DNA of 64,000 bases from Kiritimatiellia bacterium (lineage in GTDB: Bacteria; Verrucomicrobiota; Kiritimatiellia; CAIQIC01; Lenti-01). Below the pieces are notes generated by a model that worked only from the letters and a program-made list of their open reading frames with translations, made no database searches and had not been told where the DNA came from. The stretch spans positions 160-64,159 of the forward strand of contig JAFXQI010000022.1 in the NCBI GenBank assembly GCA_017527155.1. Direction: 5' to 3'. Below, piece by piece: positions 6,826-36,987 of the stretch; position 1 is the stretch's first letter; each line of letters starts with the position of its first letter. Both the position numbers and the translations under genes were made by a program.

Positions 6826-6839
6826 TTGGAAACAGGAAA
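6826..6839 (+). promoter_or_regulatory. conserved upstream element TTGGAAACAGGAAA (copy 1), 42 nt before the ATGAAA start of paralog A
   Basis: Identical 14-mer at 27981. A downstream TTTCCCC box and a CCCCACC-ATGAAAAA start context are shared. Confidence 0.5.
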
Positions 6840-6881
6840 GAATTGACGGAATCTTCTCGTTTCCCCATACTCCTCCCCACC

Positions 6882-7820
6882 ATGAAAAACATCCTCCGCA
6901 ACGCCTCCGACCGCACCCAATCCGTCTTCGCCGCCGCCTATTCCCCCTTCCGCGGCGGCAACGGGGCGATCGGCCTTGCCTTTCTTCCGGCCGTCCTCGG
7001 CGTCACGGCAACCGCCTTCGTCGGCTTCCTCGCCACCGAGACCGGCGCCGCGATCCTCGGCGAACTCCGTCGCCGCGGCCGCCTCCGCACTCCCCACCCG
7101 GAGAGCCCCTCCCTCCGCGGCACCCCGACCGCGCAAGAGCTGAAAGCCGATTGCACGATTTCGCCGCGTACCCTCCGAGTGCGCCTGCGCCTCGGTTCGC
7201 GCCTGGCCGACCTCGGTCCGACGCTCGACAGCGGCAACCATTACCGCGAATCTGCGACCGGTGCCAAACGCATCCAGTCGCGTGGCCGCGGCCTGCGCGG
7301 CTACCTCGCGGACAACCGCATCGCCGCCAGCTACTCCACCCTCATGCGATACCGCCGCCTCGCCCTCCGTCTCCGCCGGCTCCTGCAGCTCGATTCCCGT
7401 CTTCCCCTCGAATGGCTCCTTCCCGGCGAATCCCCGGACCGCCCGCTTCCCGCCGACCTACAGGTCCCCTACTCCACCGCCCGGCGCCGCCTCGACCGCC
7501 TCCTCCGCGAACACCGGAACTTCGACCGCCTCCGCAAACACGTCGATGCCAAGCTCGGCATTCCCGAACTGCTGACCGTCCGCCGTACCGCCCACCGCGC
7601 GAAGGAAGCGGGGAAATCCTGCCGCCGGTTGCCGAAACAAAAGCCGCTCCACTGCCAGTCGGTGGTTCTCGGCGACTACACCGTCACCCCCTCTCCATCC
7701 CGCCTTGATGCAACGATGCGGGCCTTCGCCCGGTTTCTGCACGAGCGCAACCTCCCCGTGAAGCTCGCCGTCCACCGCGACCGCTTCGCCCAATGGCTCG
7801 CCCAAGCGGGTGCCTCCTGA
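6882..7820 (+). CDS. hypothetical N-terminally anchored Arg-rich protein (paralog A of the 28860-29834 gene)
   Basis: 312 aa. Shares clear blocks with the gene at 28860 (RLR-GSRLADL-PTLDS; YST-M-Y--LA-RLR-L; PLEWLLP; RLLAEH) and the same conserved upstream element 42 nt before the ATGAAA start. Confidence 0.6.
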   Translation: MKNILRNASDRTQSVFAAAYSPFRGGNGAIGLAFLPAVLGVTATAFVGFLATETGAAILGELRRRGRLRTPHPESPSLRGTPTAQELKADCTISPRTLRVRLRLGSRLADLGPTLDSGNHYRESATGAKRIQSRGRGLRGYLADNRIAASYSTLMRYRRLALRLRRLLQLDSRLPLEWLLPGESPDRPLPADLQVPYSTARRRLDRLLREHRNFDRLRKHVDAKLGIPELLTVRRTAHRAKEAGKSCRRLPKQKPLHCQSVVLGDYTVTPSPSRLDATMRAFARFLHERNLPVKLAVHRDRFAQWLAQAGAS

Positions 7821-7951
7821 ACGGAGTTGAGGGGGCCGACCGTAGCGTATCGTGACAAACGGCGGGCACTCCCTGCGGGGCCGAACGGGCGATGGAAACG
7901 GCTCGCCCGGAGCGCCCGAACGGCCGTCTGGAACCCCAAACGGGAGCTGCG

Positions 7952-8641
7952 CTATTGCTGAATCCGCGCCAGCACCGCGGCCTCGGCGGCGCGGCGCATG
8001 CCGGAGATGGCGGCGGCCATGTCGGGGGCCTTGTAGAGGAAGGAACCGGCGCCGAGGATGTTCGCCCCGGCCGCCGCGCAACGCGCCCCCGTTTCGGTGT
8101 TGATGCCGCCGTCCACGGACAAATCCAGATCGGGCCAGCGGCGGCGCAGCTCGCGGAATTTCGGCAATCCCGACTCCAGGAAGGTCTGCCCGCCGAATCC
8201 CGGGTGCACCGTCATGACGAGCACCTCGTCCAGCAACCCGGCGTCGGCCACGTCCGCCAGGGCGTCCACGGGGGTTTCGGGGCAGATGACCGCGCCCGCC
8301 TTCTTGCCCGCGGCGCGGATGGCCCGCAGGGTGTCCGGGATGCCGCACGGCGCTTCGATGTGCACCAGCACCGCGTCGGCACCGGCCCCGATGAAGCGTG
8401 GCGCGTAGAAATCGGGACGGTCCACCATCAGGTGGACATGCAGGTACGCCTCCGGAAGTTCATCCCGCAGTGCCCGCAGCACGTCCGGCCCCAGCGTCAT
8501 GTTCGCGACGAAGTGTCCGTCCATGACATCGAAATGCAGGCCGTCCGCCCCCGCCTCCAGGGCGCGCCGGCAGTCGGCGGCCAGATGTCCCATGCGGGCG
8601 GACAGGATGGAGGGGAGAATCTGGATTTTTTTCGTGTTCAT
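7952..8641 (-). CDS. rpe: ribulose-phosphate 3-epimerase
   Basis: 229 aa. Rpe motifs (LHFDVMDGHFV, HVHLMV, MTVHPGFGGQ, SVDGGI). Confidence 0.92.
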   Translation of the reverse strand: MNTKKIQILPSILSARMGHLAADCRRALEAGADGLHFDVMDGHFVANMTLGPDVLRALRDELPEAYLHVHLMVDRPDFYAPRFIGAGADAVLVHIEAPCGIPDTLRAIRAAGKKAGAVICPETPVDALADVADAGLLDEVLVMTVHPGFGGQTFLESGLPKFRELRRRWPDLDLSVDGGINTETGARCAAAGANILGAGSFLYKAPDMAAAISGMRRAAEAAVLARIQQ

Positions 8642-8736
8642 GTTGCCATTCTATCCTGCATCCGACCAACCCGGCAAGGCCGGAAAAGACATCCCGCCAT
8701 CCGCATCCCGATCGGATACGACAGACCGGGAGTGCG

Positions 8737-9636
8737 CTACGTGCGGGCTTTGTCGGCGGCGCGGTGGCGGTTCCAGTGGAGTTCCATCTCGGGGAGGGTG
8801 CAATCCTTGAGGGTCTTGCCTTCGGCGAGGATTTCGGATTCCATGGCGCGGAAGCGGCGCTCGAACTTGGCGTTGGTGCGGTCGAGGGCGTAGTGGGGGT
8901 CGCACTGGACGAAGCGGGCGACCTTCACCGCCGCGAAGAGGACGTCGCCGAGTTCTTCCATGACGTGGTCGCGGGAGTCTTCCTTCACGGCTTCGTCGAG
9001 TTCGCCGACTTCCTCGCGGAGTTTGTCGAGGGCGCCGTTGACGTCGGCCCAGTCGAAGCCGGCGCGCGCGGCCCGCTTCTGGAGCTGGTAGGCGCGGTGG
9101 AGGGGCGGGACGTGCGAGGGAATGCCGTCGAGGGCGGATTGGCGGGCGGTCTTTTCGGCGCGCTTGATCCGGTCCCAGTTGCGCAGGACGTCGGCCGTGG
9201 TCGGGGCGGATTCGGTGCCGAAGATGTGGGGATGGCGGCGGATCAGCTTGTCGGAGATGCCGCGGGCGACGTCGGCCATGTCGAAGAGACCGGATTCGGC
9301 GGCGACCTGAGCGATGAAGACGATCTGGAGGAGGAGATCGCCGAGTTCTTCGACCATGTCGGCGCGGTTCTGCGTTTCGAGGGCGTCGAGGGCTTCGTAG
9401 GCTTCTTCGATGAGGTAGGGCTTGAGGGTTTCGAGGGTCTGTTCGAGGTCCCAGGGGCAGCCGTCGCCGGGGCGCCGGAGGCGGGCCATGATGTCGAGGA
9501 GCCGGGCGTACTGGGCGGAGGCCTCGGGGGTGGCGCCGGTGGCGGAGGGGGTACGCGAAGGAGCCGCCCCGGCGGGGGCGGCTCCGGCGGCGTCGCGCGG
9601 GGCGCGGGGAAGGGCCGGATCAGAGGGCGAGTTCAC
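8737..9636 (-). CDS. mazG: nucleoside triphosphate pyrophosphohydrolase MazG
   Basis: Tandem MazG domains (LLDIMARLRRPGDGCPWDLEQT...EELGDLLLQIVF and ...EELGDVLFAAVKVARF). The Pro/Ala-rich N-terminal ~45 aa may be 5' over-extension. Confidence 0.8.
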   Translation of the reverse strand: MNSPSDPALPRAPRDAAGAAPAGAAPSRTPSATGATPEASAQYARLLDIMARLRRPGDGCPWDLEQTLETLKPYLIEEAYEALDALETQNRADMVEELGDLLLQIVFIAQVAAESGLFDMADVARGISDKLIRRHPHIFGTESAPTTADVLRNWDRIKRAEKTARQSALDGIPSHVPPLHRAYQLQKRAARAGFDWADVNGALDKLREEVGELDEAVKEDSRDHVMEELGDVLFAAVKVARFVQCDPHYALDRTNAKFERRFRAMESEILAEGKTLKDCTLPEMELHWNRHRAADKART

Positions 9637-10309
9637 GGAAGAAGTTGGCGGGTACGAGGTCCTTGAGGGAGTCGCAGACGGCGTTGGCGCCGCCGAAGTC
9701 CTGGAAGTCGGTGAAGGCGTCGGGGACGGCGAGGACGTTCATGCCGGCGGCGAGGGCGCCCTTGGCGGATTCGGCGCCGGAGACGATGGCGAGGCAGTTC
9801 TTGGGATTGCGCTCGGCGGTCTTGGCGGCGCGAAGCCAGAGGTCGGCCTGCTGCATGGAGGTGTCGGTGGGGGCGGCGACGAGGATGCGCGCGTTCCAGC
9901 GGGCGAAGTCGAGGTGCTGCGCGATGGATTCGGCGGAGGGCAGGATGGAGACGCCGACGATGTTGAAATGGCGGGAAAGGGCGGCGTCGAGCCAGGGAAC
10001 GAGGTCGGCGCGGATGGTGGCGTCCTTCTGCATGAGCCGGGAGGTGGTCTCGCCGACGAGGCGCTTGGCGACCTGCTCGGGGGTGGCGGAGGTGTACTGG
10101 AGGGCGTCGAGCAGTCCGGGGAGGTAGGCGGCCGGGAGGGTGGCGAGGCAGTGGCGGAGGAAGAGGGGTTCGGGGAAGTCGATGCCCTGCTCGCCGAGGA
10201 TGCCCTTGAGGATTTCGTAGCGGATGGCGCGGGCGCCGAGGGCGATGTCGTCGAACTCGAAAATCAGTCCGCACTGGGGGGCGGCGGCGGCCTTGTCTTC
10301 TTTCTTCAT
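9620..10309 (-). CDS. HAD-like hydrolase-fold protein (divergent motifs)
   Basis: 229 aa. The C-terminal region resembles HAD motifs III/IV (KNCLAIVSGAESAKGALAAGMNVLAV), but the N-terminal DxD nucleophile motif is not canonical (FEFDDIAL). Confidence 0.4.
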   Translation of the reverse strand: MKKEDKAAAAPQCGLIFEFDDIALGARAIRYEILKGILGEQGIDFPEPLFLRHCLATLPAAYLPGLLDALQYTSATPEQVAKRLVGETTSRLMQKDATIRADLVPWLDAALSRHFNIVGVSILPSAESIAQHLDFARWNARILVAAPTDTSMQQADLWLRAAKTAERNPKNCLAIVSGAESAKGALAAGMNVLAVPDAFTDFQDFGGANAVCDSLKDLVPANFFRELAL

Positions 10310-10345
10310 GGTATGTCTTTCGTTCCTTGTGGGTTTTCGGGCACT

Positions 10346-14179: not shown

Positions 14180-14192
14180 CGTGTGTCTCCGA

Positions 14193-19935: not shown

Positions 19936-19971
19936 CTAGAAACCTAGATATCTAGATATCTAGAAACCTAG
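19936..19971. promoter_or_regulatory. CTAG-based palindromic operator candidate upstream of dnaJ
   Basis: CTAGAAAC-CTAGATATCTAGATATCTAG-AAACCTAG: a perfect 20-bp palindrome flanked by direct AAAC-CTAG repeats, AT-rich within a 70% GC genome, 19 nt before the dnaJ ATG. Confidence 0.45.
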
Positions 19972-24618: not shown

Positions 24619-24847
24619 CTCCCCGATTCTAGCCGCCTGCCCCCGCCTTGGCAAGCCCCAAGCCCCCCCCTTTGCGGGCCCGGTCCGGCTGCAGCGTTTT
24701 TTGAGATTACGGAAAACCCCGGCAAATTCCCCCTTTCCCCCCCCATTCCTCCCCCATGAACGACATTTCCCCGGCCCCCCGCGATTTGCGGCTTGCCGCC
24801 GCCCCGTCCGAAACGCTAGAGTCCGGACCATGAAGGAGACCGTTGCC

Positions 24848-25432
24848 ATGAAACCGTCCGTCCACGCCCTCGCCCTCTCGTTCCTGCTGCTCGCCGCCGC
24901 CGGCGCTGCCGCACAGGACATCCGCACCGCGTGGGCCTACCACGCCGCCGAAGGCGCCTCCCCCGCCGCCGAGATCATCCCCGGCAAGGCGACCGCCTTC
25001 CTCGCCAACGGCACCGCGTCCATCCCCCAGGACCGCACCGTCACCCTCTACGTCATGACCGACCACCAGTTCGCCGGCGACCTCGACGAACAGATCTTCG
25101 TCCGCTGGTGGGACGGCTACATGGCCCACTGGGTCATGGGCTCCTGGGTCGAAAACCTCCACCTCTCCCCCTCCAATTCCATCCGCGGCTTCCCGGCCGA
25201 CGGCGAGGTCATGGTCGATCTCTGGAAGATCGACATCCCCTCCTGGATCACCCAGCCCGGCGAGAATTTCTACGCCATCCAGCTCAAGGGCTGCCGCGGC
25301 GACCATTCCGAGGAGCGCTACCTCCTCCGCCGCGCCGGCGGCGACTTCTCGCGCCGCAACGCGCTCGGCCAGGCCTGGTCCTCGTCGGAAGAATTCGACG
25401 GCCAGGACTGGAGCGTCACGATCCTGCCCTGA
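24848..25432 (+). CDS. secreted hypothetical protein
   Basis: AAGGAG RBS. Sec signal peptide (MKPSVHALALSFLLLAAAGAAAQD). No recognisable domain. Confidence 0.55.
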   Translation: MKPSVHALALSFLLLAAAGAAAQDIRTAWAYHAAEGASPAAEIIPGKATAFLANGTASIPQDRTVTLYVMTDHQFAGDLDEQIFVRWWDGYMAHWVMGSWVENLHLSPSNSIRGFPADGEVMVDLWKIDIPSWITQPGENFYAIQLKGCRGDHSEERYLLRRAGGDFSRRNALGQAWSSSEEFDGQDWSVTILP

Positions 25433-25444: not shown

Positions 25445-27928
25445 GTGGAGTGGTGGGCGGAGCAGGAAGAGGAGGATTTCCTCGCCTCGCAGCGGCCGCC
25501 GCGCGCCCGTCCGATGGTCGGGATCGCGGTACCGTTCATGGCCGGCATCGCCGCTGGCCTGACGCTCCCCGTGCCCGCCTGGACCGCCGCCGCCGCCGCG
25601 CTCGTGCTGGCGGGCGGCGCGTTCGCCTTCCTGCGGCGCGGGTGGTCGGCGGGGCTCCTCGCGCTGCTGCTGTTCGTGCTCGGCGCCGGCCACGCGCGGC
25701 TCTCCATCGAAGCCCGCAATGGCCCCGACGCCCTCGCCTCGCGCATCCCCCGCCGAATGGAGTACGTCCGCTTCGCCGCCGTCGCGCGCGAGGACGCCGT
25801 GCGCCGCCCGCCCCGCCCCGGACGCCGCTCCGGCGACGTGTGCGTCGAAACCGACGCCGTGGCGCTGGACCGCGACGGCCGCTGGGAGCGCGCCGCCGGG
25901 CGCATCCAGGTCGTCCTGCGCGGCGTCCCCGACGGCGCCCCCCTCCCCCTCTACGGCGAGCGCTGGGCCTTCCACGGCCTCGTGCGCCCCGGACACGGCC
26001 GCGGCGGCCGCACGCAGGCCGTCATCGACGCCGACCGCGCCGTACGCTGGGACGCCGGCCACGGGAACCCCTTCGTGCGCTGGTGCATGGAGCGCCGCCG
26101 CGCCTGCCGCCGCATCCTCTCCGCGGGCCTCGACGACCGCCCCGAGGAGCGCGCCATCCTGCAGGCCCTCCTCCTCGGCTACCGCGCCGACCTCCCCGAG
26201 ACCCTCCGCGACGACTTCCGCGCGACGGGCACCATCCACGTCTTCGCCATATCCGGCGCGCACGTCATGGTCATGATGGTCCTCGTGGACGCCGTGCTCG
26301 CCCTCCTCGGCATCCCGCGCACCCGCTGGTTCTGGGCCGCCGCGCCCCTGCTCGCCGCCTACACCGTCGGGACCGGCGCCGCCGTCAGCGCCGTCCGCGC
26401 CTGCCTCATGGCCGTGTCCGCGATGGGGGCCCTCTGCCTGCGCCGGCGCGGCGACGGCACCAGCTCCCTGCTGGCGGCGGCCATGCTGATTCTCGTCTTC
26501 GCGCCCGACCAGCTCTTCGATCTCGGCTTCATCCTCTCCTTCACCGCCGTCGCCTCCCTCCTCGCCCTCGTACCCCCGATGGAGCGGCCCGTCGCCCGCC
26601 TCTTCTCGCGCGACCGCTGGCGCATCCCCGCCGACCTCCCCTGGTGGCGGGAAGCCCCCCTCGCCGCGGGCGCCTTCCTGCGCCAGAACGCCGTCGTCTC
26701 CTGCGCCGCGTGGATTGGTACCGGTCCCCTCACCGCCTTCTGGTTCAACCTCTTCTCGCCCATCGCCCTCCTCGTCAACCTCGCCGTCGTCCCCACCGTG
26801 CTCGCCCTCCTCGCCCTCGGCGTCGCCAGCCTTCTCGGCGCCTGGACCGGCCCCGCCTGGCCCGAACTGTGCAACCGCGCCGCCGCGGGACTCGCCGGAC
26901 TCCTCGCCTCCTGCATCGGCTGGGCCTCCCGCGTCCCCCACGGACACTGGTTCGTCCGCTCCCCGCCCGCCCTCCTCGTGTGGAGCGGCTACGCCGTCCT
27001 CCTCGCCGGCGTCTGGGCCCGCTCCCGGGGCCGCCGATGGGTCCTCCCCGCCGCCCTCGCCGCCGTCGCCGCCGCCTACGCCGCGTGGGGCGCCCTCGAC
27101 GCCCGGCGCTGCCGCATCAGCATCCTCGACGCCGGCGAAAGCAACGCCGTCCTCGTGCAGGCCGGACCCGCCCGCGTACTGGTCGATACCGGCGAATCCT
27201 TCCGCGCCTGGACCCTTCTCCGCCAACTCCGCGCCCAGGGCGTCAACCGCCTCGACGCCGTCGTCCTCACCCATGCCGACACCGCGCACACCGGCGCCCT
27301 CCCCTACCTCCTCGACGCCGTCCCCGTCGGCGCCCTCTGGCTCCCCGACCCCGTATGGCCCACCCCCGCCATCCGCGACCTCCTCGCCCGCTGCGAAAAC
27401 CCCAATCCCGACGATCCTCCCCTCCCTCCCCTCCGCCGCCTCTCCGCCGGCGACGCCGGACTCCTCCCCCTCGGCGTCTCCTGGGAAGTCCTCTGGCCCT
27501 CCAAAAACGCCCCCATGGCCTGCGCCGACGACACCTCCCTCGTCCTCCGCGTCGCCCGCTACGGCGCCTCCGTCCTCCTCCCCTCCGACGCCACCCCCGC
27601 CGCCGAGCGCGCCATCCTCGACGCCGGGCGCCGCCCCGACGCCGCCCTCCTGCTCGCCGCCGACCACGGCAGCTCCGCCTCCACGCCGCCCTGGTGGCTC
27701 GACGCCGTATCCCCAGACGCCGTCCTCGTCAGCTGCGGCCCCCATTCCAAGGCCTACCATCCCGACGCCGCCCTCCTCGACCTCCTCGCCTCCCGGAACC
27801 TCCCCGTCCTCCGCACCGACCTCTCCGGCGACCTCCACATCGACTTCCTCCCCTCCGTCCCACGCCCTCCCCGCCGCGGCTACCGCCTCACCGCCTCCCG
27901 CCCCCTCCCCTCCGACCTCCCCCTCTAA
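25445..27928 (+). CDS. comEC: DNA internalization-related competence protein ComEC/Rec2
   Basis: Polytopic competence domain (TGTIHVFAISGAHVMVM...) plus C-terminal metallo-beta-lactamase domain (VLTHADTAHTGAL; LLAADHGSSAS). The true start may be internal (MVGIAV at ~25514). Confidence 0.85.
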   Translation: MEWWAEQEEEDFLASQRPPRARPMVGIAVPFMAGIAAGLTLPVPAWTAAAAALVLAGGAFAFLRRGWSAGLLALLLFVLGAGHARLSIEARNGPDALASRIPRRMEYVRFAAVAREDAVRRPPRPGRRSGDVCVETDAVALDRDGRWERAAGRIQVVLRGVPDGAPLPLYGERWAFHGLVRPGHGRGGRTQAVIDADRAVRWDAGHGNPFVRWCMERRRACRRILSAGLDDRPEERAILQALLLGYRADLPETLRDDFRATGTIHVFAISGAHVMVMMVLVDAVLALLGIPRTRWFWAAAPLLAAYTVGTGAAVSAVRACLMAVSAMGALCLRRRGDGTSSLLAAAMLILVFAPDQLFDLGFILSFTAVASLLALVPPMERPVARLFSRDRWRIPADLPWWREAPLAAGAFLRQNAVVSCAAWIGTGPLTAFWFNLFSPIALLVNLAVVPTVLALLALGVASLLGAWTGPAWPELCNRAAAGLAGLLASCIGWASRVPHGHWFVRSPPALLVWSGYAVLLAGVWARSRGRRWVLPAALAAVAAAYAAWGALDARRCRISILDAGESNAVLVQAGPARVLVDTGESFRAWTLLRQLRAQGVNRLDAVVLTHADTAHTGALPYLLDAVPVGALWLPDPVWPTPAIRDLLARCENPNPDDPPLPPLRRLSAGDAGLLPLGVSWEVLWPSKNAPMACADDTSLVLRVARYGASVLLPSDATPAAERAILDAGRRPDAALLLAADHGSSASTPPWWLDAVSPDAVLVSCGPHSKAYHPDAALLDLLASRNLPVLRTDLSGDLHIDFLPSVPRPPRRGYRLTASRPLPSDLPL

Positions 27929-27980
27929 CCCCTCCTCCCTCCCGCCCTCCCGCCCTTCCGCCCCCCGTCGCGACCAACTT

Positions 27981-27994
27981 TTGGAAACAGGAAA
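27981..27994 (+). promoter_or_regulatory. conserved upstream element TTGGAAACAGGAAA (copy 2), 41 nt before an ATGAAAAA small ORF
   Basis: Exact 14-mer repeat of 6826-6839 with the same TTTCCCCC box and CCCCACCATGAAAAA. Located in the ComEC / OMP convergent gap. Confidence 0.45.
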
Positions 27995-28035
27995 AATCCA
28001 CACATTTCCCCCTTCCCGGCACCATCATCCCCACC

Positions 28036-28173
28036 ATGAAAAATCCCCCCTCCTCCCCCCTGGAAACGCCGAAGGCGCCCCCCGCAGGGGACGCCTTCCG
28101 CAACCCGGCCGAACCCGTTCTCAGAACGCCCAGCTCACGATTGGCATCATCTTCACGTCCCCCGAATCGATGA
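28036..28173 (+). other. 45-codon ORF (MKNPPSSPLETPKAPPAGDAFRNPAEPVLR...) preceded by conserved element copy 2; possible small protein, leader or transcribed RNA
   Basis: Same CCCCACC-ATGAAAAA start context and 41-nt spacing as the three full-length genes carrying the element. Overlaps the 3' end of the convergent OMP gene by ~50 nt, so coding status is doubtful. Confidence 0.25.
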
Positions 28174-28603
28174 TGTTGATGATCCCGATCTGCACCCCGT
28201 GGAGGCCACCCACGTGGTTGAACAACCCGATCTGCAACCCATCCATCTGCCCCTTCACGATGTTGACCAACCCGAGCTGGAAGCCCGTCGCCGCTTCGTC
28301 GATGTTCACCAGACCCACCTCGAAACCGCAGGACATCACGTCCGAGAGGTTGATCGCGTTCAGCCGGATGCCGCGGATGGTGCCGCCGCCGCCCGCGATG
28401 CCGAGATCGAGGCCGGTCATCTCGATGTTTTCGCTGTACGGCAGATTCAGCCGCAGCCCCACCACCTCGCGGTCGGCCCCGAACAACTGCGCCGAATCCC
28501 CGACGATGCCGATCTGCACGGGCACCGCCGCCGACGCGACCACCGTACCGACCAACGCCATCGCCACCAAGCCCAACCACAAACCCTTTGCCGTCTTCTT
28601 CAT
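28121..28603 (-). CDS. outer-membrane beta-barrel candidate with tandem 8-residue GxQxGxxN repeats
   Basis: Signal peptide (MKKTAKGLWLGLVAMALVGTVVASAAV). Repeats GLQIGLFN/GVQIGIIN/GFQLGLVN/GFEVGLVN. Aromatic C-terminus (SWAF), typical of OMP barrels. Confidence 0.6.
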   Translation of the reverse strand: MKKTAKGLWLGLVAMALVGTVVASAAVPVQIGIVGDSAQLFGADREVVGLRLNLPYSENIEMTGLDLGIAGGGGTIRGIRLNAINLSDVMSCGFEVGLVNIDEAATGFQLGLVNIVKGQMDGLQIGLFNHVGGLHGVQIGIINIIDSGDVKMMPIVSWAF

Positions 28604-28758
28604 GTCATGACCTTTCATTGTTTGCATCGGCACCCCGCCGATTGCCCCCGTACCATACCCATCCCCCCCCCGTGAACGCAACCCCAAACCACCCGCCCGT
28701 CCGCCCGTCCGTCCATCCTCCCTCCCTCTCCCCCTCTCCCGCCCACATCCTCCCTTGA

Positions 28759-28803
28759 CCTCCATTGTCCGCCCCACTCTTGGCCTCCATTGTCCGCCCC
28801 ACT
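28759..28803. repeat. direct 20-bp repeat CCTCCATTGTCCGCCCCACT x2 (5-nt spacer) immediately upstream of the conserved element of paralog B
   Basis: Read directly; abuts the GCGATATCAAGGAA element. Confidence 0.7.
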
Positions 28804-28804
28804 T

Positions 28805-28818
28805 GCGATATCAAGGAA
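28805..28818 (+). promoter_or_regulatory. conserved upstream element GCGATATCAAGGAA (copy 1), 41 nt before the ATGAAA start of paralog B
   Basis: Same 14-mer at 35094 and, inverted, at 29641. Followed by a TTTCC box. Confidence 0.5.
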
Positions 28819-28859
28819 TTCTCTTGCATTTCCTTCCGTTTTCATCCATCATCCCCTCC

Positions 28860-29834
28860 ATGAAAGACGAACCCATCTTCCCCCGCGGCTACCTCAAGGC
28901 CCTCGCCTCCGACTGCTTCGGCCCCTCCTGCAGCCATGCCCCCACGGCCATGCTCCTGCAGACCGTCGGCTCCCTGGCCCTCTTCACCGGCGCCCTCGCC
29001 GCGCACCTCGCCTGGTACGGAGGCAAACGCATCCTCTCCCGCCTCCGCCGCCGCGTCTCCCCGCCAGAACCCGTGCCACCTCCCGCCTCCCAAGCCCCCC
29101 TTTCCCTCCGTGGCATCCCCTCCCCCGGCGACATCGAAGACGTCTGGGACCTCGACCCGCGCACCCTCTGCGGCCGCCTTCGCATCGGCTCCCGCCTGGC
29201 CGACCTCGAACCCACCCTCGACTCCCGGTTCCTCTTCAAGAAGTCCCGCAACGGCTCCCGCCGCATCGTCGCCCGCCAACCGGGTCTCAAAGGCTGGATG
29301 AAAAAGCACGTCCCGTCCATCAAGTATTCCACCGCCATGCACTACAAGAAGCTGGCCACCCGCCTCCGCCAGCTCACCGGCCTCGACCCGCGAATCCCCC
29401 TCGAATGGCTCCTCCCCGACAACCAAGAATCCCTCCCCGCCCTCTCCCCCTCCGACCACCAGACCGTCACCCAGGCCAAGACCCGGCTTGCCCGTCTCCT
29501 CGCCGAGCATCCCAAGGTCACCCACCTGATCCGGGCGGTCGAATCCAAGCTCGGGATCATGCGGATGGTCACGATCCGCCACATCCAGCCCCCTGGGCCG
29601 GGACGCGGGAGGAGACGGAACTCGAAAGAAATCCCCGATAATTCCTTGATATCGCGAGTCTCCCGTGGTGGATGGGCCGTGACGGCGGACGCGGTGCGCA
29701 CGCAGGCTTTCTGGGATGCGATACGGAGGGTACTGGGCGATCCCTCCCCGGATGCCGGGACCCGCCGCCTGCAATCGGACATCCGCGAATGGCTGAACGC
29801 CCCTCTGGAGGCACGCCGGAACCGGCGGCGATAG
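28860..29834 (+). CDS. hypothetical N-terminally anchored Arg-rich protein (paralog B of the 6882-7820 gene)
   Basis: 324 aa. Homologous blocks with paralog A. The conserved upstream element GCGATATCAAGGAA lies 41 nt before its ATGAAA start. Confidence 0.6.
   Translation: MKDEPIFPRGYLKALASDCFGPSCSHAPTAMLLQTVGSLALFTGALAAHLAWYGGKRILSRLRRRVSPPEPVPPPASQAPLSLRGIPSPGDIEDVWDLDPRTLCGRLRIGSRLADLEPTLDSRFLFKKSRNGSRRIVARQPGLKGWMKKHVPSIKYSTAMHYKKLATRLRQLTGLDPRIPLEWLLPDNQESLPALSPSDHQTVTQAKTRLARLLAEHPKVTHLIRAVESKLGIMRMVTIRHIQPPGPGRGRRRNSKEIPDNSLISRVSRGGWAVTADAVRTQAFWDAIRRVLGDPSPDAGTRRLQSDIREWLNAPLEARRNRRR
29641..29655 (-). promoter_or_regulatory. inverted copy of GCGATATCAAGGAAT inside the 3' part of paralog B coding sequence
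   Basis: Reverse complement reads TCGCGATATCAAGGAATTATC, matching the two upstream copies over 15 nt. Confidence 0.3.
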
Positions 29835-29991: not shown

Positions 29992-31485
29992 ATGGCCAAT
30001 GCTTGGGCAACCGGTGTGTGCGTCAGGCCGGACGGGCTGGAATGGACCGTCCTGCGGCGCACGAAGGAGTCGTGGGACGTTCATTCCCGCGGCTCGGCGG
30101 CGTTTGCTCCGGAGGGGGGCGCGGCCGCGGAGGGGGACGGCGGCGAGACGGCCGCGACGCTTCCGCCGCCGGAGCCGGTCGACTCCGCCCACATGGACTG
30201 GGGAAAGTGGACGGCGGAGGCGCTGCGTCCGCACCTGAAGTCGATGAGGGGGAAAATATCCGTCGTCCTGCCGATGGACCAGGCGCTGGTGCGGCTGGAG
30301 ACGTTCCCGTCGGGGGACGCGGAGGAGCTGTACGGGATGGCCGGGCTCCAGACGGACAAGCTCTCGCCCTTCCCGGAGGAGGAGACGGCGACGGGCGTCG
30401 AGACGCTGGAATGCACCGAGGCGGAATCGCTGGTCGCGCTCGCCATCGTGCGCGCGGATGCGGTGGAGAAGGCGGGGGCGCCGTTCCTGGAACTGGGGTC
30501 GTTGCCGGACGCGGTGGACGTGGAGCCGCTGGCGTGGTGGTGGGGCGCGAGGAAGCTGCTGGGCGAGTCGCCGCGCGGTGGGAGGATCGTGCTGCGGGCG
30601 GAGGCGTCGGGGCGCATCGCGATGGCGGTGGCGCACGGGACCCGGCCGATCGCGTTCGGGGCGCTGCCGCCGCTGCCGCCGGAGGGGGCGGACGGGGAGT
30701 GGCTGGAGGAGGCGGCCGAGGAGGTGTCGTATGCGCTGACGTCGCTGGAGAGCGCGTGGGGCGCGGAGGGGGCGCTGAAGATGTCGGTGGTGGCGCCGGA
30801 GGGCGTCGACGTGTCGTGGGCGGCGGGGCTGGCGAAGGCGCTGGGGGCGTCGGCGCCGGAGACGGTGAAGGCGGAGGAGGTTCCGAGCGTGTCGGAGGGG
30901 GCGGCGCGGCGGCTGGCGGAGCCGGCGGAGCCGCTGTGGATGGACCTGGCGCCGGCGGCGTGGCGGGAGGAGGACGAGCGCCGCCGCGGGAACCGGGTGC
31001 TGATGGGGGCGGCGACGGTGTTCGTTGCGCTGTGGCTGCTGGCGCTGGGGGTGTTTTTCACGATGCTGAACGTGCGCCGCGCGCGCCTGTCGGATTTGGA
31101 GGCGAAGGTGGAGGCGGTGGAGAAGCCGGCGGCGGAGGTGCGGCGGCTGAGGGCGAAGGTGATGGACTTCGCGGCCTACGCGGACCGGAGCCGCTCGGCG
31201 CTGGAGTGCCTGCGGGCGATGAGCGAGGCGCTGCCGCCGGGCGTGGAGCTGAACTCGTTCATCTACCGCAAGGGGACGTCGCTGACGCTGCGCGGCGAGG
31301 CGGACGATTCGGAGCGCATCTACGCCTTCACGCGCGGCCTCGACGAGTCGGGGCTGTTCGACGACGTGAAGTCGGACGGCATCAGCATGAAGCCGGGCGC
31401 GGGCGGCGGCGCGGCGAAGTACACCTTCGGCATCACGGCCGCGCTCCCCGGCAACGGCGACGAATCGGAAGGCGGTGCGCCGTGA
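29992..31485 (+). CDS. fused PilM-like / PilN-like pilus (or T2SS) assembly protein
   Basis: N-terminal ~330 aa actin-like PilM-type region. Then a TM helix (VLMGAATVFVALWLLALGVFF), a coiled coil and a PilN-like periplasmic domain (GVELNSFIYRKGTSLTLRGEAD...FTRGLDESGLFDDV). Confidence 0.6.
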   Translation: MANAWATGVCVRPDGLEWTVLRRTKESWDVHSRGSAAFAPEGGAAAEGDGGETAATLPPPEPVDSAHMDWGKWTAEALRPHLKSMRGKISVVLPMDQALVRLETFPSGDAEELYGMAGLQTDKLSPFPEEETATGVETLECTEAESLVALAIVRADAVEKAGAPFLELGSLPDAVDVEPLAWWWGARKLLGESPRGGRIVLRAEASGRIAMAVAHGTRPIAFGALPPLPPEGADGEWLEEAAEEVSYALTSLESAWGAEGALKMSVVAPEGVDVSWAAGLAKALGASAPETVKAEEVPSVSEGAARRLAEPAEPLWMDLAPAAWREEDERRRGNRVLMGAATVFVALWLLALGVFFTMLNVRRARLSDLEAKVEAVEKPAAEVRRLRAKVMDFAAYADRSRSALECLRAMSEALPPGVELNSFIYRKGTSLTLRGEADDSERIYAFTRGLDESGLFDDVKSDGISMKPGAGGGAAKYTFGITAALPGNGDESEGGAP

Positions 31486-31487
31486 AG

Positions 31488-32054
31488 ATGGCCCCCCGCG
31501 AACGCAATCTCCTTTTCGCGACGCTGGCGGTAGCGCTGCTGGCGGGCACGTGGGCGTTCCTGGCGCCGCAGCGCGCGGAGTGGAAGGACTACCGCGACCG
31601 CCGCGACGACCTGGACGACCGCCTGGCGAAGGCGGAGCGCATGCTCGGCCAGCAGGCGGACGTGGAGACGCGCCTGGCGGAGTTCCGCAAGGGCGTGCCG
31701 GTGTTCGCCGAAGGCAAGCGCGCGGAAGCGGAGCTGCTGCCGGAGGTGGACCGCATGGCGAGCCGCCACGGCCTGGCGCTGGTGCGGCGGTCGGCGTCGG
31801 ACAAGGAGCGCGAGGCGGGCGACCTCTACGAGACGACGCTGACCTGCGAGTGGGAGGGGACGCTGGACGCGCTGGTGCATTTCCTCTACGACCAGCAGTC
31901 GCAGGGCGTGGTGTCGGACATCCGGCAGCTGCGCATCCAGCCGCAGACGGGCGCGAAGCTCGGCACCCTCAAGGGCGGCTTCGAGATGGACTGCGCCTAC
32001 CGCCGCGAGGCCGCAGGCGGCGGCGCCGAAGCCGGCGGGGAGGCCGCCGAATGA
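31488..32054 (+). CDS. PilO/GspM-like pilus assembly protein
   Basis: N-terminal TM helix (LLFATLAVALLAGTWAF), coiled coil, C-terminal PilO-like domain. Start overlaps the stop of the PilMN-like gene (GTGAAGATG). Confidence 0.55.
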   Translation: MAPRERNLLFATLAVALLAGTWAFLAPQRAEWKDYRDRRDDLDDRLAKAERMLGQQADVETRLAEFRKGVPVFAEGKRAEAELLPEVDRMASRHGLALVRRSASDKEREAGDLYETTLTCEWEGTLDALVHFLYDQQSQGVVSDIRQLRIQPQTGAKLGTLKGGFEMDCAYRREAAGGGAEAGGEAAE

Positions 32055-32092
32055 CCGCCCGGCGCACAACCGACCCCGGACGCGGGAAATCC

Positions 32093-32134
32093 CGATTGCA
32101 GTCGATTGCAATCGATTGCAGTCGAATGCAATCG
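32093..32134. repeat. four tandem 10-mers CGATTGCAGT/CGATTGCAAT/CGATTGCAGT/CGAATGCAAT, 56 nt upstream of the secretin start
   Basis: Read directly from the sequence; 10-bp (one helical turn) periodicity. Confidence 0.8.
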
Positions 32135-32189
32135 AAAAACCCGCCCGGGCCGCAAGGAGACGTTTGACCACAACGACGGAGTCGAGAGC

Positions 32190-35048
32190 ATGAACCACGC
32201 GAAGCACCATCCCTCCCTCTGGCAGCGGGGCCTGTCGGCCCTGCTCGCGGTGGCGTTCGCCGCCGCGGAACTCGCCCCCGCGGCCGCCTACGCCCAGGGC
32301 GACGAAACGCGCGCACGGGTGCGGCGCCTGCGCGAACTCAACGAGGCGCGCCAGCGCGCCGCCGCCGCCGCGCCCGTGCCCGGCGACGCGGACGCCGCCG
32401 CCGATGACGCCGCGCCCTCCGCGCCCGCGCCGCGCTCCTTCCCCTCCGCGCGCGACCCCGCCGCCGGCGCCGACGCGGGCGACGAGGACAGCATCTGGCA
32501 GTTCAACCTCGTCAAGGACGCCCCCCTCGACGCGCTCCTCGACATGTATTCGCAGGTCACCGGCCGCACCATGATCAAGGCGCCCGGCGTCAACGCCACC
32601 TTCCCCAACATCAAGGTCAAGGAGAAGCTCACCAAGTCCGAGATGCTCCAGGTCATGGACAGCCTGCTTTCCATGAACAACATCTCGCTCGTGCCGCTGG
32701 GGACGCGGTTCTACCGGGTCGTGCAGATCGACAAGGCGTCCACCGAGGGCATGTCCATCCAGACCGAGGTCCCCGAGGGCGGCTACCCCGAGAGCGACGC
32801 GCTGGTCAGCCAGCTGATCCGCCTGAAGTACCTCGGGATGGAGGACGCCAACAACATCGTCGGCGCCATGCTCCACGGCTACGGGAAGGTCCAGCGGCTC
32901 GACCGCATCAACAGCCTCCTCGTCCTCGAAACCTCCACCAACCTGCGCCGCATCAACGACATCCTGGAGATGGTGGACCAGCCGACCGAGCTCAACGTCG
33001 AGACCAGCGTCTACGTCATCCGCCACGCCAAGGCCGCCGACATCGCCGCCCGCCTCAACGAACTCGCCAGCGACAGCGAGCAGAAGGAAGAAGTCGCGCG
33101 CGTCGCCGAGCCCCGTTTTCCCCGCCGTCCCCCCAGCATGATGCGCGCCCGCCAGCCCGCCGCCGCCGCCGAGGACGCCGCCCAGCCCAGCGCCGCCTCC
33201 ACCGCCGCCACCGCCGCCGAGAAGGGCATCATCCAGGGCAAGGTCAAGATCCTCACCGACGAGCGGACCAACATCATCATCGTCATCACCAACCCCGTCA
33301 ACCTCCCCTTCTTCAACATGATCGTCAACGCCCTGGACGTCTCCGTCGATCCCGAAGTCGAGGTGCAGGTCGTCAACCTCGAATTCGCCGACGCCGAGGA
33401 AATGGCGTCGCTGCTCAACAACTTCATCGGCGCCTCCTCCTCGTCCAGCGATTCAAGCAACGTCCCCGGCGGCGGCCGCTCCACCGCCAGCGGCGACGAC
33501 TCGCGCGCGCAGGCCCTGGAGAATTTCGTCCGCGCCCGCGCCAGCGCCGCCGACCGCAACGCCGCCAAGGAAGCCGTTGCCAAGATCGGGCAGCTCTCCA
33601 GCGACACCAAGATTCTCGCCGACACCCGCACCAACACCATCCTGCTCATGGGCACCAAGGGCGACATCGCGGCGCTGCTCGAAGTCATCAAGAAAGTCGA
33701 CATCATGCTCGCGCAGGTCCTCATCGAGGCCGTCATCCTCGAAGTCAACCTCCACAACGACTCCTCCTACGGCATCAGCTGGCTCCAGAAATCCATGACC
33801 GCGTACAACGCCAAGAACGTCAACGGCATCTCCGTCAAGAACCCCGTCGTCTCATGGGGCGGCTCGTTCGGGGGGAACAACTTCGGGACCGTGGCGGGCG
33901 ACACCGTCAGCCGCGCGTTCGCGGGAGGCACGGGACTGAGCTACTTCTTCACCTTCACCGACCTCAACATGGACGCCGTCCTCGACATGGTCGCCTCCAG
34001 CGGCGAAGGGCGCGTGCTGGCGACGCCGGTCATCCTGACCACCGACAACACCGAAGCCTCCATCATCTCCGGCCAGAGCGTGCCCATCCGGACGGGCGAC
34101 TCCAGCTACTCCTCCGGCACCTACTACGGCACCTACGAATACAAGGACGTCGGCATCGAGCTGAAGGTCAAGCCGCGCATCAACCCGTCCCGCTACGTCA
34201 CGCTCGAGATTTCGCAGTCCGCCAACACCCTCGGCGACCAGACCGACGTCGGCAACGGCTCGACCATGTACAAGATCAACAAGCGCGAACTGACCGCGTC
34301 CATTTCCCTCCCGTCGCGATCCACCATCGTGCTGGGCGGCCTCGTCGAGACCGACTACTCCTCCAGCGAAAGCCACATCCCGATCCTCGGGAGCATCCCG
34401 ATCATCGGCGCCCTCTTCCGCAACGAAAACAAGACCCGCCAGCGCACCGAGCTGCTGGTCCTCATCACCCCGTACGTCCTGATGACCCCCGAAGAAGCCC
34501 GTGCCGAGACCGAGCGCCTCCACCGCGCCTCCAACGTCGCGGCCGAGGACTGGTACCGCGGCTGGTCCGACTCCTCCCTCGCCCCCTTCTCCCCCGCCAA
34601 ACTCAAGGAAATGCGCAAGAAGGAAAAGGCCAAGCAGGAAGGCATCACCCTCCGCACCCTTGATGACGCCCCCGCCGCGACCGGCATTGGCCGTGCAACC
34701 GCCCCCGGTAGCACCGGCGCCCCCGTCGGCATCATCCCCTCCAGCCTCTTCCCGGACGCCCCCGGCGCGGCCGACCTTCCCGACCTCGCCCCCGAGGACG
34801 GCGACACCCCGCTTCCCGCCCCCGAATCCCCGGCGACCGACGCCCCCTTCACCTTCGATGCCGCCGCGGCGGCCGCCTTCGCGACCCCCGCCGACGAGGA
34901 CGCCCTCCCGCCCGCGGACCCGTCCGATTCCCCGGATTCCGACGACGCCCCCTCCGCCGTCGCCCCCCGCCGCAGCCTCTTCGGCCGCCGTTCCACCCCC
35001 GACCCCGAGCCCAAACCCAGCATGTTCCCCGCCCCCGACGCGGAGTGA
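32190..35048 (+). CDS. type II/IV secretion system secretin (GspD/PilQ family)
   Basis: Signal peptide. N0/N1-like domains and a conserved secretin C-domain (VPILGSIPIIGALFRNENKTRQRTELLVLITPYVL). Long Pro/Ala/Asp-rich C-terminal tail. Confidence 0.85.
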   Translation: MNHAKHHPSLWQRGLSALLAVAFAAAELAPAAAYAQGDETRARVRRLRELNEARQRAAAAAPVPGDADAAADDAAPSAPAPRSFPSARDPAAGADAGDEDSIWQFNLVKDAPLDALLDMYSQVTGRTMIKAPGVNATFPNIKVKEKLTKSEMLQVMDSLLSMNNISLVPLGTRFYRVVQIDKASTEGMSIQTEVPEGGYPESDALVSQLIRLKYLGMEDANNIVGAMLHGYGKVQRLDRINSLLVLETSTNLRRINDILEMVDQPTELNVETSVYVIRHAKAADIAARLNELASDSEQKEEVARVAEPRFPRRPPSMMRARQPAAAAEDAAQPSAASTAATAAEKGIIQGKVKILTDERTNIIIVITNPVNLPFFNMIVNALDVSVDPEVEVQVVNLEFADAEEMASLLNNFIGASSSSSDSSNVPGGGRSTASGDDSRAQALENFVRARASAADRNAAKEAVAKIGQLSSDTKILADTRTNTILLMGTKGDIAALLEVIKKVDIMLAQVLIEAVILEVNLHNDSSYGISWLQKSMTAYNAKNVNGISVKNPVVSWGGSFGGNNFGTVAGDTVSRAFAGGTGLSYFFTFTDLNMDAVLDMVASSGEGRVLATPVILTTDNTEASIISGQSVPIRTGDSSYSSGTYYGTYEYKDVGIELKVKPRINPSRYVTLEISQSANTLGDQTDVGNGSTMYKINKRELTASISLPSRSTIVLGGLVETDYSSSESHIPILGSIPIIGALFRNENKTRQRTELLVLITPYVLMTPEEARAETERLHRASNVAAEDWYRGWSDSSLAPFSPAKLKEMRKKEKAKQEGITLRTLDDAPAATGIGRATAPGSTGAPVGIIPSSLFPDAPGAADLPDLAPEDGDTPLPAPESPATDAPFTFDAAAAAAFATPADEDALPPADPSDSPDSDDAPSAVAPRRSLFGRRSTPDPEPKPSMFPAPDAE

Positions 35049-35093
35049 TCTTCCCCCTCCCCCACCCCATTCCCGCTTCCCTTCCGGCCATTC

Positions 35094-35107
35094 GCGATAT
35101 CAAGGAA
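35094..35107 (+). promoter_or_regulatory. conserved upstream element GCGATATCAAGGAA (copy 2), 41 nt before the ATGAAA start of the transglutaminase-like gene
   Basis: Exact 14-mer repeat. Immediately followed by a perfect hairpin with a T-run. Confidence 0.5.
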
Positions 35108-35132
35108 AAACCGAACCTTTCATTCGGTTTTT
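35106..35132. terminator. perfect hairpin AAAAACCGAA-CCTTTCA-TTCGGTTTTT (secretin terminator and/or 5'-leader attenuator of the next gene)
   Basis: 10-bp stem including A/T runs on both sides. Sits between the conserved upstream element and the ATG at 35149. Confidence 0.55.
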
Positions 35133-35148
35133 CCCCCAACCTCCCCCC

Positions 35149-36987
35149 ATGAAAACCCACCGCCCGGCACCCGCCCCCGGGCTCGAGTTTTCGGCTGGCG
35201 GAGAGAAGGGTGGACGCGGTAGCATGTACGGCATGAACCCCATCCCCCCCGACTACATCCCCGTCCCCTCCTCCCTCATGGAGGAGTACTCCTCCGCCGC
35301 GACGCTCTCCGACATGGAGATATTCATCTTTCCCCGCCTGCTCTATCCCCTGGTCCTGGCAAACATGATGTCCCCGGCCCTCTGGCGCTGGCGCGACGAC
35401 CCGTGGTTCGCGAACTCGGCCCGCCTCAGCCCCTACCGCCGCATCCTGCGCCTCAAGCAGTTCATCATGGACCACTACACCTTCAACCTCGACCTCGAAA
35501 CCTGGGGCCTGACCACCCAGCGCCGCGAGCTCGACCGCTTCGCGCGCTACATGCCGCCCGAGACGATCGCGCGCTCCAACGCCCTCTTCGGCTACCACGG
35601 CGACCGCTTCTACTTCGACCTCGACATCCGCCGCCACTTCGGCCTCGACAAATACTCCGGCGACACCATCCCCTACTGGAAGACCGAGACCCTCGAAGCC
35701 ATGGACGCCTTCCGCCACCGCCCCGGACACGCCACCGGCGCCGGCGAATGCGTCTCCCTCTCGACCCTCTACGCCGCGGCCCTGCACGTCCACGCCGGCA
35801 TCCCGCTCGACGACATCTACCTCCTCGCCACGCCCCTGCACTCCCAGAACTTCGTCGACCTCGGCGACGGCATCCTGACCAACAACCGGCGTCTCGTGAC
35901 GAAGGCCATGTGGTACAACGGCACCGCCCTGAGCGCGAAGGCCCGCCGCGCCCTCGAGCACGAACGCCTGACCATCGTCTCGCACCTCACCGGCCACATC
36001 CACACCGTCTATCCCGAAGCGACCATCTCCCCCGACGCCTACGCCCGCTTCCAATTCCGCCTCCGCGCCTTCGCCGCGACCGACCCCACCGCCGAAATCC
36101 TCTGCAACTTCCTCCGCCAGGCCCCGCACCGGCAGCCGTGCTTCCAGATCGAGGCGACCATCAACGGCAAACCCCGCTGGCTGCCCGCCGAGAAAGCCTA
36201 CGCCTTCGAGAACTCCGGCTCCTACAAAGTCTCCGACTCCACCCGCGACCGGCTCCTGGCGGGCATCGACGAAGACGAATTCTTCGCCGCGCCCATCCCC
36301 GACCGCATCCCCCTCAACCGCTTCGACGCCTTCTTCCGCAACCACCCCGTGCGGCTCGACGACCCGGCCGACCGCCAGGCCCTCGCGCGCGAATTCGACT
36401 GCTTCCGCACCGGCGTCTGCGAGATCGCCGACGAACTGGCCGCCTTCTGCCGCCTCGAACCCCGATGGCCCGACGCCGACGGTCCCGCCAAGACCTTCGT
36501 TCCCTCGCCGGCCCTCCGCATCCCCGAAGGCCCCGACTTCACCCGCGAAGCCCTCGTCGAGGCCCTCGCCGCACAGCGCCGGACCAACCCCGTCGCCGAC
36601 CTCGCCTTCTACGTCTGGCGCGACCTCTCCCGTACCGACCCGCGCCCCTTCCTGAAGGCGGCCGTCGAGCGCTCCCCCGTCTGCGACGAAGCCACCCGCG
36701 CCGTCGCCACCGGAGACCTCCCCGCGCTGGTCCGCGACCTCCCCGACGAATCCATCTACGGCGAAGGCCCCCGCGCGGCCCAACCCGACGAAGTCTGGAA
36801 CTCCCGCCGCGGCGACGGCCTCGAAAAAGCCGTCCTGCTGGCCGCCCTCCTGCACGCCCGCGCTCCCGGCGAAGCGCTGTCGCTCGAATCGGACGGCCGC
36901 ACCGCCCGCCTCCGCTTCGGCACCCAAGACCACCTCTTCCCCACCACCAACCCGGCGGTTCTCGAAGCGGCCTACGACCCCGCCTAG
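35149..36987 (+). CDS. transglutaminase-like (Cys-His-Asp) domain protein
   Basis: 612 aa. Core GAGECVSLSTLYAAALHVHAGIPLDD...LHSQNFVDLGDG matches the transglutaminase-like cysteine-peptidase fold pattern (C ... H-x-x-F/W-V-E/D ... D). The conserved upstream element lies 41 nt before the start. Confidence 0.5.
   Translation: MKTHRPAPAPGLEFSAGGEKGGRGSMYGMNPIPPDYIPVPSSLMEEYSSAATLSDMEIFIFPRLLYPLVLANMMSPALWRWRDDPWFANSARLSPYRRILRLKQFIMDHYTFNLDLETWGLTTQRRELDRFARYMPPETIARSNALFGYHGDRFYFDLDIRRHFGLDKYSGDTIPYWKTETLEAMDAFRHRPGHATGAGECVSLSTLYAAALHVHAGIPLDDIYLLATPLHSQNFVDLGDGILTNNRRLVTKAMWYNGTALSAKARRALEHERLTIVSHLTGHIHTVYPEATISPDAYARFQFRLRAFAATDPTAEILCNFLRQAPHRQPCFQIEATINGKPRWLPAEKAYAFENSGSYKVSDSTRDRLLAGIDEDEFFAAPIPDRIPLNRFDAFFRNHPVRLDDPADRQALAREFDCFRTGVCEIADELAAFCRLEPRWPDADGPAKTFVPSPALRIPEGPDFTREALVEALAAQRRTNPVADLAFYVWRDLSRTDPRPFLKAAVERSPVCDEATRAVATGDLPALVRDLPDESIYGEGPRAAQPDEVWNSRRGDGLEKAVLLAALLHARAPGEALSLESDGRTARLRFGTQDHLFPTTNPAVLEAAYDPA

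Follow-up and report, generated by a model that had tools for sequence, protein, structure and literature searches.

Class II activator-dependent promoters have a poor -35 element, UP elements belong to sigma-70 promoters, and promoters of extracytoplasmic function (ECF) sigma factors carry a GGAAC -35 element. Auxiliary operators can lie in coding sequence, as do lacO2 in lacZ and galOI in galE, and invertible promoters are represented by fimS, hin and the polysaccharide loci of Bacteroides. Kiritimatiellae abound in the rumen and gut, where they degrade polysaccharides. To our knowledge, almost nothing is known about their transcription signals, no literature on their promoters was found, and we know of no RpoH in this phylum. 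A -10 box close before the start codon is the signature of leaderless mRNAs in Deinococcus deserti (PMC4007540), sigma-32 promoters follow the pattern CTTGAAA-N11-15-CCCCATnT (PMC6699477), and the occurrence of one promoter before unrelated genes has been described for putative mobile promoters (PMC3488235). Here, we describe a promoter cassette of about 70 nt with a likely operator, in itself a known kind of element, in a 64,000-nt stretch of DNA from a Kiritimatiellia bacterium (GenBank assembly GCA_017527155.1, contig JAFXQI010000022.1, positions 160 to 64,159 of the forward strand; the whole stretch is called the window below). The cassette stands before the genes of a family of proteins of about 320 amino acids (aa) that is restricted to Kiritimatiellae, and, as orphan copies, elsewhere. 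What is new is the setting: an upstream motif specific to each protein clade, orphans without a -35 element before competence and pilus operons, an inverted copy that overrides codon preference, and a large, uncharacterized gene family.

The original prediction for the window named two 14-mers, each occurring twice at a fixed distance from an ATGAAA start. A search of the window recovered both, TTGGAAACAGGAAA at 6826 and 27981 and GCGATATCAAGGAA on the plus strand at 28805 and 35094, as well as the inverted GCGATATCAAGGAA inside paralog B, which lies on the minus strand at 29642-29655 (predicted at 29641). The spacing of 41-42 nt also held, with gaps of 42, 41, 41 and 41 nt to the ATGs at 6882, 28036, 28860 and 35149, all of which begin ATGAAA and are preceded by the predicted C-rich tract (CCCCACC, CCCCACC, CCCCTCC and CCCCCC, respectively). 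With up to two mismatches, TTGGAAACAGGAAA is matched twice and GCGATATCAAGGAA four times, compared with 0.01 and 0.13 matches expected from shuffled sequences. The window has a GC content of about 70% and a C-rich plus strand, and the 20 nt upstream of the reported starts are C-rich and CCTCC-like, which is the same sense as the anti-Shine-Dalgarno sequence. When an nhmmer profile of the cassette, trained solely on family promoters of other genomes, was run on the window, exactly five full-length cassettes were matched, with E values from 1e-14 to 2e-3, namely the four already reported and, newly found, one at 24697-24760 (Table 1). The intragenic inverted copy is a partial match of the same profile. 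On a reading that we regard as somewhat more probable than not, the two 14-mers are variants, each specific to a clade, of the upstream block in one and the same cassette.

The layout of the cassette was derived from 57 upstream regions of paralogues from two other Kiritimatiellae metagenome-assembled genomes (MAGs). In 56 of the 57, a motif of about 14 nt ending in GAAAA is followed by about 3-5 nt, a TTG hexamer, 17 bp, CCAYNCT, 6-8 C-rich nt and ATGAA. The TTG lies at -34 to -39 in the same number of promoters, most often as TTGACA (19), TTGCAT (15) or TTGACT (7). In the second hexamer, at the 17-bp spacer, position 2 is A in 52 of 56 promoters and position 6 is T in 53 of 56, and the end of the hexamer is 6, 7 or 8 nt from the ATG in 12, 27 and 12 of the 56, respectively. 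The offset from TTG to CAYNCT is 23 nt in almost all promoters and is steadier than the distance of either hexamer from the ATG. The cassette is non-coding, because lengths within it differ by 1-5 nt and not by multiples of three. In the window, the TTG is present in cassettes 1 and 3 and missing from cassettes 2, 4 and 5, and a generic promoter scanner independently calls TTGACG-17-CATACT at cassette 1 (9/12). The region had been correctly recognized as a promoter, but its parts had been misassigned: the 14-mer, taken for the -35 element, lies at about -56 to -42, 5 nt upstream of TTGACA/TTGCAT, and the TTTCC boxes, taken for the -10 element, do exist at the four sites but lie 11-27 nt after the 14-mer at no fixed distance and occupy variable places in the spacer; of the five motif classes described below, C, D and E do not conserve them. 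As a minority feature, about ten of the 57 family promoters carry a TTTCAT box at -30 to -18 (28839-28865 in the window), which is the inverted complement of the ATGAAA start; in some pairs the flanks of box and start change together (CTTTCAT/ATGAAAG versus GTTTCAT/ATGAAAC).

We are inclined to read the cassette as a sigma-70-like core promoter with a leaderless mRNA starting at or near the ATG and with the upstream block as an operator. RNA polymerase would start on the A of the ATG or 1-3 nt away from it, and the C-rich tract would be the discriminator and not a leader; the fixed spacing to the ATG, the absence of a Shine-Dalgarno sequence and the C-rich tract would all follow from a leaderless transcript. 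As in the leaderless genes of D. deserti (PMC4007540), no Shine-Dalgarno sequence is present and the -10-like hexamer stops 6-8 nt short of the ATG, and the same geometry recurs with TAGAGT before ordinary genes of the window. Unlike in those genes, the hexamer is CCAYNCT and not TAnnnT, it is combined with a strong -35 element and a long conserved upstream block, and the start is placed by geometry. Among the ordinary genes, TAGAGT or TAGAAT lies 6-7 nt before the ATG in three of 37 (an epimerase, a ribulose-phosphate epimerase and gene 24830) against a background of 0.3%, and leaderless housekeeping mRNAs seem to be common in this genome; Shine-Dalgarno-like sequences precede about half of the window genes. 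TAGAGT, TAGAAT or CAGAGT ending 6-7 nt before the ATG was noted at 5784-6740 and 7952-8641 (both minus strand) and at 24830 and 21677 (both plus strand). The cassette also resembles sigma-32 promoters, having CTTGA(C/A)A and, 14 nt later, a C-run followed by CAT, although this is a resemblance only and the final T stands one position further on (CATNCT compared with CATNT).

The GAAAA tract is fixed 3-4 nt 5' of the -35 element, and the upstream block is A/T-rich within a genome of 70% GC. The block as a whole, about ten specific nucleotides plus (A/G)GAAAA at about -56 to -39, would occupy the place where UP elements and activators act. In class II activator promoters and UP elements, likewise, an A-tract corresponds to that at about -43 to -39 here and a specific block to that reaching about -56. 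However, the distal part of the block is class-specific and differs from the UP consensus AAAWWTWTTTTnnAAAAnnn, the motif matches no known activator site either, and the family promoters also have a consensus -35 element.

It is unlikely, in our judgement, that the cassette is instead read by an ECF-like alternative sigma factor, with AGGAAA at the 3' end of the 14-mer as the -35 element, CGTTTCC/TTTCC 16-18 nt further on as the -10 element, and a start near CCAT giving a C-rich leader of 10-12 nt without a Shine-Dalgarno sequence. GGAAA(A/C) does resemble the GGAAC of ECF promoters, CCAYNCT is unlike the housekeeping TAGAGT, and in class B (G)TTTTC(C/A) follows GGAA by 16-18 nt in promoters, orphans and intragenic copies, even where TTGACA is missing. 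However, the GGAAA-N16-18-(C)GTTTC candidate, which would fit the alternative sigma factor originally proposed, is confined to class B, and the variable distance of TTTCC from the 14-mer at the four reported sites does not fit it; classes C, D and E do not conserve the T-rich box, whereas promoters of every class, 56 of 57 in all, contain TTGNNN-17-CAYNCT. The ten class-specific nucleotides would moreover sit 5' of the supposed -35 element, where a sigma factor does not read, and the tie of 6-8 nt between the -10-like box and the ATG would be left unexplained.

At least five classes of the upstream block were distinguished: A, TTTGGAAACAGGAAAA; B, GCGATATCAAGGAAA; C, CGAGATTACAGAAAA; D, TTTGCAATCACGTGAAAT; and E, CTTTCTTTTACGAAAA. 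In the sequences compared, the motif class follows the protein clade: the nearest protein neighbour shares the class in 46 of 51 cases, and the class B 14-mer is nearly invariant down to 58% protein identity. Given that the block varies from one protein clade to another and is found again in other contexts, we infer an operator to which a clade-specific factor would bind, most simply the family protein itself. A resemblance to the integration host factor site (WATCAAnnnnTTR) fits the window copy alone and not the family, and was rejected.

Inverted copies of the motif also occur. Every class B gene contains one at +780 to +800, and every class C gene carries, at about +745, one of the different motif that belongs to its own class. 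For class D the inverted copy lies 200-600 nt past the stop codon, and none was found in classes A and E. In paralog B the copy encodes SKEIPDNSLISRV, in a linker that is predicted to be disordered in the AlphaFold model; across class B it encodes N-P/S-L-I-S-R, with Leu as TTG in 22/22 (family background 5%), Ile as ATA in 16/16 (6%) and Arg as CGA in 17/19 (3%). Since rare codons are kept and the linker is predicted to be disordered, the constraint acts on the DNA and not on the protein. The copy may serve as an auxiliary operator or as an antisense control site. In being a second copy of the upstream site, inside the gene and kept at the nucleotide level against codon preference, it is comparable to lacO2 and galOI; it differs from them in that the sites here are about 800 bp apart, asymmetric, always inverted and in the gene of the candidate regulator itself, and looping is only conjectural. 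In one class C sub-clade (L032, L033, L038, L041, L043, L045, L048 and L049), the inverted intragenic copy is followed on the antisense strand by CACACT, a C-run and, 39 nt after the motif, ATGA, which by its sequence is a complete antisense cassette. An antisense gene starting from the intragenic copy was considered and rejected: the ATG is present in this sub-clade only, and the open reading frame (ORF) is of low complexity and interrupted in some members. At L077 (3801-3810), a 1-nt deletion within the intragenic 14-mer (TTGATATCG to TGATATCG) shifts the frame of family gene P0111, the remainder of which continues in another frame.

Three of the five window cassettes (24702, 27981 and 35094) do not stand before a family gene. 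The first stands before the comEC operon, the second before an antisense region and the third before the gene that follows the pilus secretin; all three lack the -35 element and keep ATGAA at 40-41 nt. In 0.5 Mb of related loci, 40 orphan copies of the motif were found, with an ATG exactly 40-42 nt after the motif in 25 (63%) and ATGAA in 21, and with TTG at the -35 position in only eight. Half of the ORFs behind these related-locus orphans have at most 45 codons, and some orphan ORFs resemble family N-termini (MKNTPFPAPEY, MKNPPFP). The loss of the -35 element with the start geometry kept reads as the pattern of activator-dependent promoters, not as random decay, and the orphans would be such promoters; class II activator promoters are alike in this respect, the orphans here keeping the -10 element and start geometry without a -35 element. 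In the window, they would drive three transcription units: comEC, paralog-B/pilus and the post-secretin unit. At 24756, the 25-codon ORF of cassette 5 ends in a TGA that overlaps the ATG of gene 24830, an arrangement (ATGA) which suggests translational coupling from a leaderless upstream ORF to that gene. At 35094, the cassette ATG had been taken for the start of the downstream gene; it is in frame with this gene and 75 nt before its conserved start, and judging from the homologues of 577-587 aa, which begin at ATG 35224, translation probably starts there. The transglutaminase label given to the gene finds no support in the hidden Markov model (HMM) libraries. Paralogs A and B are true homologues, with 37% identity (E = 2e-39). 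The post-secretin orphan stands at the same place in L073, in a genome whose paralog-B orthologue is 66% identical and in which the order of family gene, PilN and secretin is kept. Long-range mRNA pairing between the intragenic and post-secretin copies was rejected, as the complementarity is lost in L073.

Common descent alone would make the promoter and gene a duplicated unit and the orphans decaying relics or passive mobile promoters, with no regulator behind the 14-mer; we hold this to be distinctly improbable. It is consistent with an 83%-identical paralogue pair in which homology extends exactly from -68 to the stop codon (for paralog B, it starts at 28792), with the orphan ORFs that look like family N-termini and with the precedent of one promoter before unrelated genes (PMC3488235). 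As in that precedent, homologous promoters of about 70 nt stand before non-homologous genes in one genome, whereas the orphans here are diverged, lack the -35 element and are tied to the clade-specific motifs of one family. Descent alone does not account for an intragenic copy kept against codon bias in 22/22 genes, for orphans that drop TTG (80%) yet keep ATGAA at 40-42 nt (63%), or for a post-secretin orphan kept in a distant genome.

A further explanation, which we consider very improbable, takes the upstream and intragenic copies as recombination sites of a 'partial intergenic' switch that flips the promoter with codons 1-260 and turns the gene off. The intragenic copy and 28801-28836 indeed form an inverted repeat of 36 nt with 83% complementarity and 787 nt separating the arms, and it brackets the promoter as the repeats of fimS and hin do; the repeat is conserved at the nucleotide level and class-specific in classes B and C, and the inverted copy of class D lies just beyond the gene. 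Unlike in fimS and hin, one arm lies within coding sequence. When the 70 loci and truncated homologues were checked for discordant orientation, all 38 class B and C loci and all full-length database homologues listed showed the same orientation, and the one truncated homologue examined, P0111, proved to be the 1-nt frameshift mentioned above and not an inversion. No recombinase gene adjoins the loci, classes A and E have no inverted copy, and the orphans and the fixed distance to the ATG would remain unexplained. A structured 5'-leader RNA (riboswitch or attenuator) between the 14-mer and the ATG, the alternative named in the original prediction, is hardly credible: pairing of GGAAA with TTTCC is possible and site 4 folds more stably than shuffled sequences (12-bp hairpin, z = -5.3), but no gain over shuffles is seen at the remaining four sites, RNAalifold gives no consensus pair across 43 aligned cassettes, Rfam has no match in the window, and a consensus -35 hexamer stands at the correct spacing within the region.

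Several points weigh against the sigma-70-like, leaderless, operator-bearing promoter that we favour. Position 1 of the -10 hexamer is C in 49 of 56 promoters, with C also preceding the hexamer in 54 of 56, and a different sigma factor may be used, CCAYNCT being unlike the housekeeping TAGAGT of the window. The transcription start site is placed by geometry only, and Shine-Dalgarno sequences are used by 63% of genes in Kiritimatiellae (PMC10783764). The strict CA...T box is present in only ten of the 26 orphans that have an ATG. With regard to the operator, single-base variants of the upstream and intragenic copies of class B do not co-vary, the agreement between class and clade could come from common descent alone, and no recognizable DNA-binding domain was found in the family protein with Pfam, NCBIfam, PHROG, PADLOC, PDB or Foldseek.

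The family itself is large. An exhaustive profile search yielded 443 representatives, and paralogs A and B each have hundreds of relatives, all unnamed or annotated as 'hypothetical protein [Kiritimatiellae]'; going by the names that homologues carry, the window comes from a Kiritimatiellae genome of the rumen. A scan of one genome per species gave 70 loci, and since 69 of these sit in two MAGs, there are at least 30 copies per genome. Neither Pfam, NCBIfam, PHROGs nor PADLOC gave a significant match for paralogs A and B; Pfam gave no domain in ten distant superfamily members, nor in all 46 alignment members at E <= 10; and a profile search of PDB sequences gave no match. In the AlphaFold model (predicted local distance difference test score, pLDDT, 77), residues 80-245 form a confident core, the N-terminus contains a hydrophobic helix, and the segment at 251-275 is disordered. 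Nothing significant was found when the model was compared with PDB and BFVD by Foldseek; the best match, the catalytic domain of the SSV1 integrase (E = 2.2), was dismissed as noise. Sequence conservation extends from about -70 to the stop codon, with nothing conserved downstream and no outer terminal inverted repeats, and no family relative was found in viral contigs; a mobile element, whether an insertion sequence or a miniature inverted-repeat transposable element, was rejected as unlikely, given the lack of outer terminal repeats, of conserved flanks and of any viral-contig relative. A scan of viral contigs for the 14-mers gave scattered single matches in unrelated contigs and was uninformative.

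As a possibility that we regard as doubtful, the proteins of about 320 aa might be regulators that are tethered to the membrane and bind specific DNA sequences, forming a new family expanded through paralogues. Each clade would read its own 14-mer, control its own leaderless promoter from the upstream site together with the inverted auxiliary site inside or just behind the gene, and switch on the -35-less orphans of other operons, here those of comEC and the type IV pilus cluster. If this is so, the regulator network would be organized like the expansions of ECF sigma factors but built from an unrelated protein, and binding of the motifs by the family protein would define a new class of regulator. 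The cassette offers a testable promoter model for the phylum (TTGACA-17-CCAYNCT with a leaderless start) and ties clade-specific DNA motifs, which also stand before competence and pilus operons, to a gene family with dozens of members in each genome. The intragenic motif kept against codon bias illustrates cleanly how a constraint at the DNA level overrides protein coding. The cassette also corrects many mis-called start codons of family genes: gene callers often start the ORF 12 codons early, inside the cassette (L073, 5982-6040; database proteins of 336-340 aa), whereas the motif and the true ATG are 41 nt apart.

Table 1. Cassettes of the window, the intragenic inverted module and the associated genes and reading frames, in order of position (E values are those of the nhmmer cassette profile).
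Feature	Coordinates	Strand	Details
Cassette 1, class A	6819..6881	+	motif TTGGAAACAGGAAA 6826-6839; E = 0.002; -35 TTGACG 6843-6848; 17-bp spacer; -10-like CATACT 6866-6871; 10 nt to ATG 6882
Paralog A, 312 aa, class A clade	6882..7820	+	Kiritimatiellae-only family
Orphan cassette 5, class C-like, newly found	24697..24755	+	motif TGAGATTACGGAAA 24702-24715; E = 3.6e-7; no TTG -35; CCATTCCT 24743-24750; ATG 24756
25-codon ORF from cassette 5 ATG	24756..24833	+	TGA overlaps ATG of gene 24830-25432 (ATGA), then comEC 25445-27928
Orphan cassette 2, class A	27973..28035	+	motif 27981-27994; E = 6e-5; ACACAT at -35 place 28000-28005; CATCAT 28023-28028; 7 nt to ATG 28036
45-codon ORF behind cassette 2	28036-28173	+	antisense into real gene 28121-28603 (minus strand)
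Cassette 3, class B	28792..28859	+	motif GCGATATCAAGGAA 28805-28818; E = 1e-14; -35 TTGCAT 28824-28829; 17-bp spacer; -10-like CATCAT 28847-28852; 7 nt to ATG 28860
Paralog B, 324 aa	28860..29834	+	heads pilN-like / 190-aa / secretin operon (30016-35048)
Intragenic inverted upstream module	29624..29659	-	14-mer 29642-29655 plus TTTC boxes
Orphan cassette 4, class B	35087..35148	+	motif 35094-35107; 46 nt past secretin stop; E = 1.5e-5; hairpin GGAAAAACCGAA (35104-35115)/TTCGGTTTTTCC (35123-35134) at -35 place; CAACCT 35137-35142; 6 nt to ATG 35149
Conserved hypothetical protein, 587 aa	35224..36987	+	homologues 577-587 aa begin at ATG 35224

Other repeats were observed before genes of the window. 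A 25-nt tandem duplication (CCTCCATTGTCCGCCCCACT...) at 28749-28798 lies directly 5' of the paralog-B cassette, and interleaved repeats GATTGCAGTCGATTGCAATCGATTGCAGTCGAATGCAATCGA at 32094-32135 lie 5' of the secretin gene (ATG 32190). At 19936-19971, directly 5' of a DnaJ-like gene (ATG 19990), direct 12-mers stand around a 12-nt palindrome (CTAGAAACCTAG-ATATCTAGATAT-CTAGAAACCTAG), an arrangement that looks like an operator. Four tandem copies of TTGTCAC (44027-44054) are found just 5' of the gene for a tetratricopeptide repeat (TPR) protein of 1115 aa (ATG 44073), and a CGTCTCC heptad repeated three to four times and followed by TTGACA (47578-47610) precedes the enolase gene (47628). Finally, a giant ORF of more than 4900 codons on the minus strand (49265-63976) runs past the end of the window, and the plus strand opposite carries a long spurious ORF.

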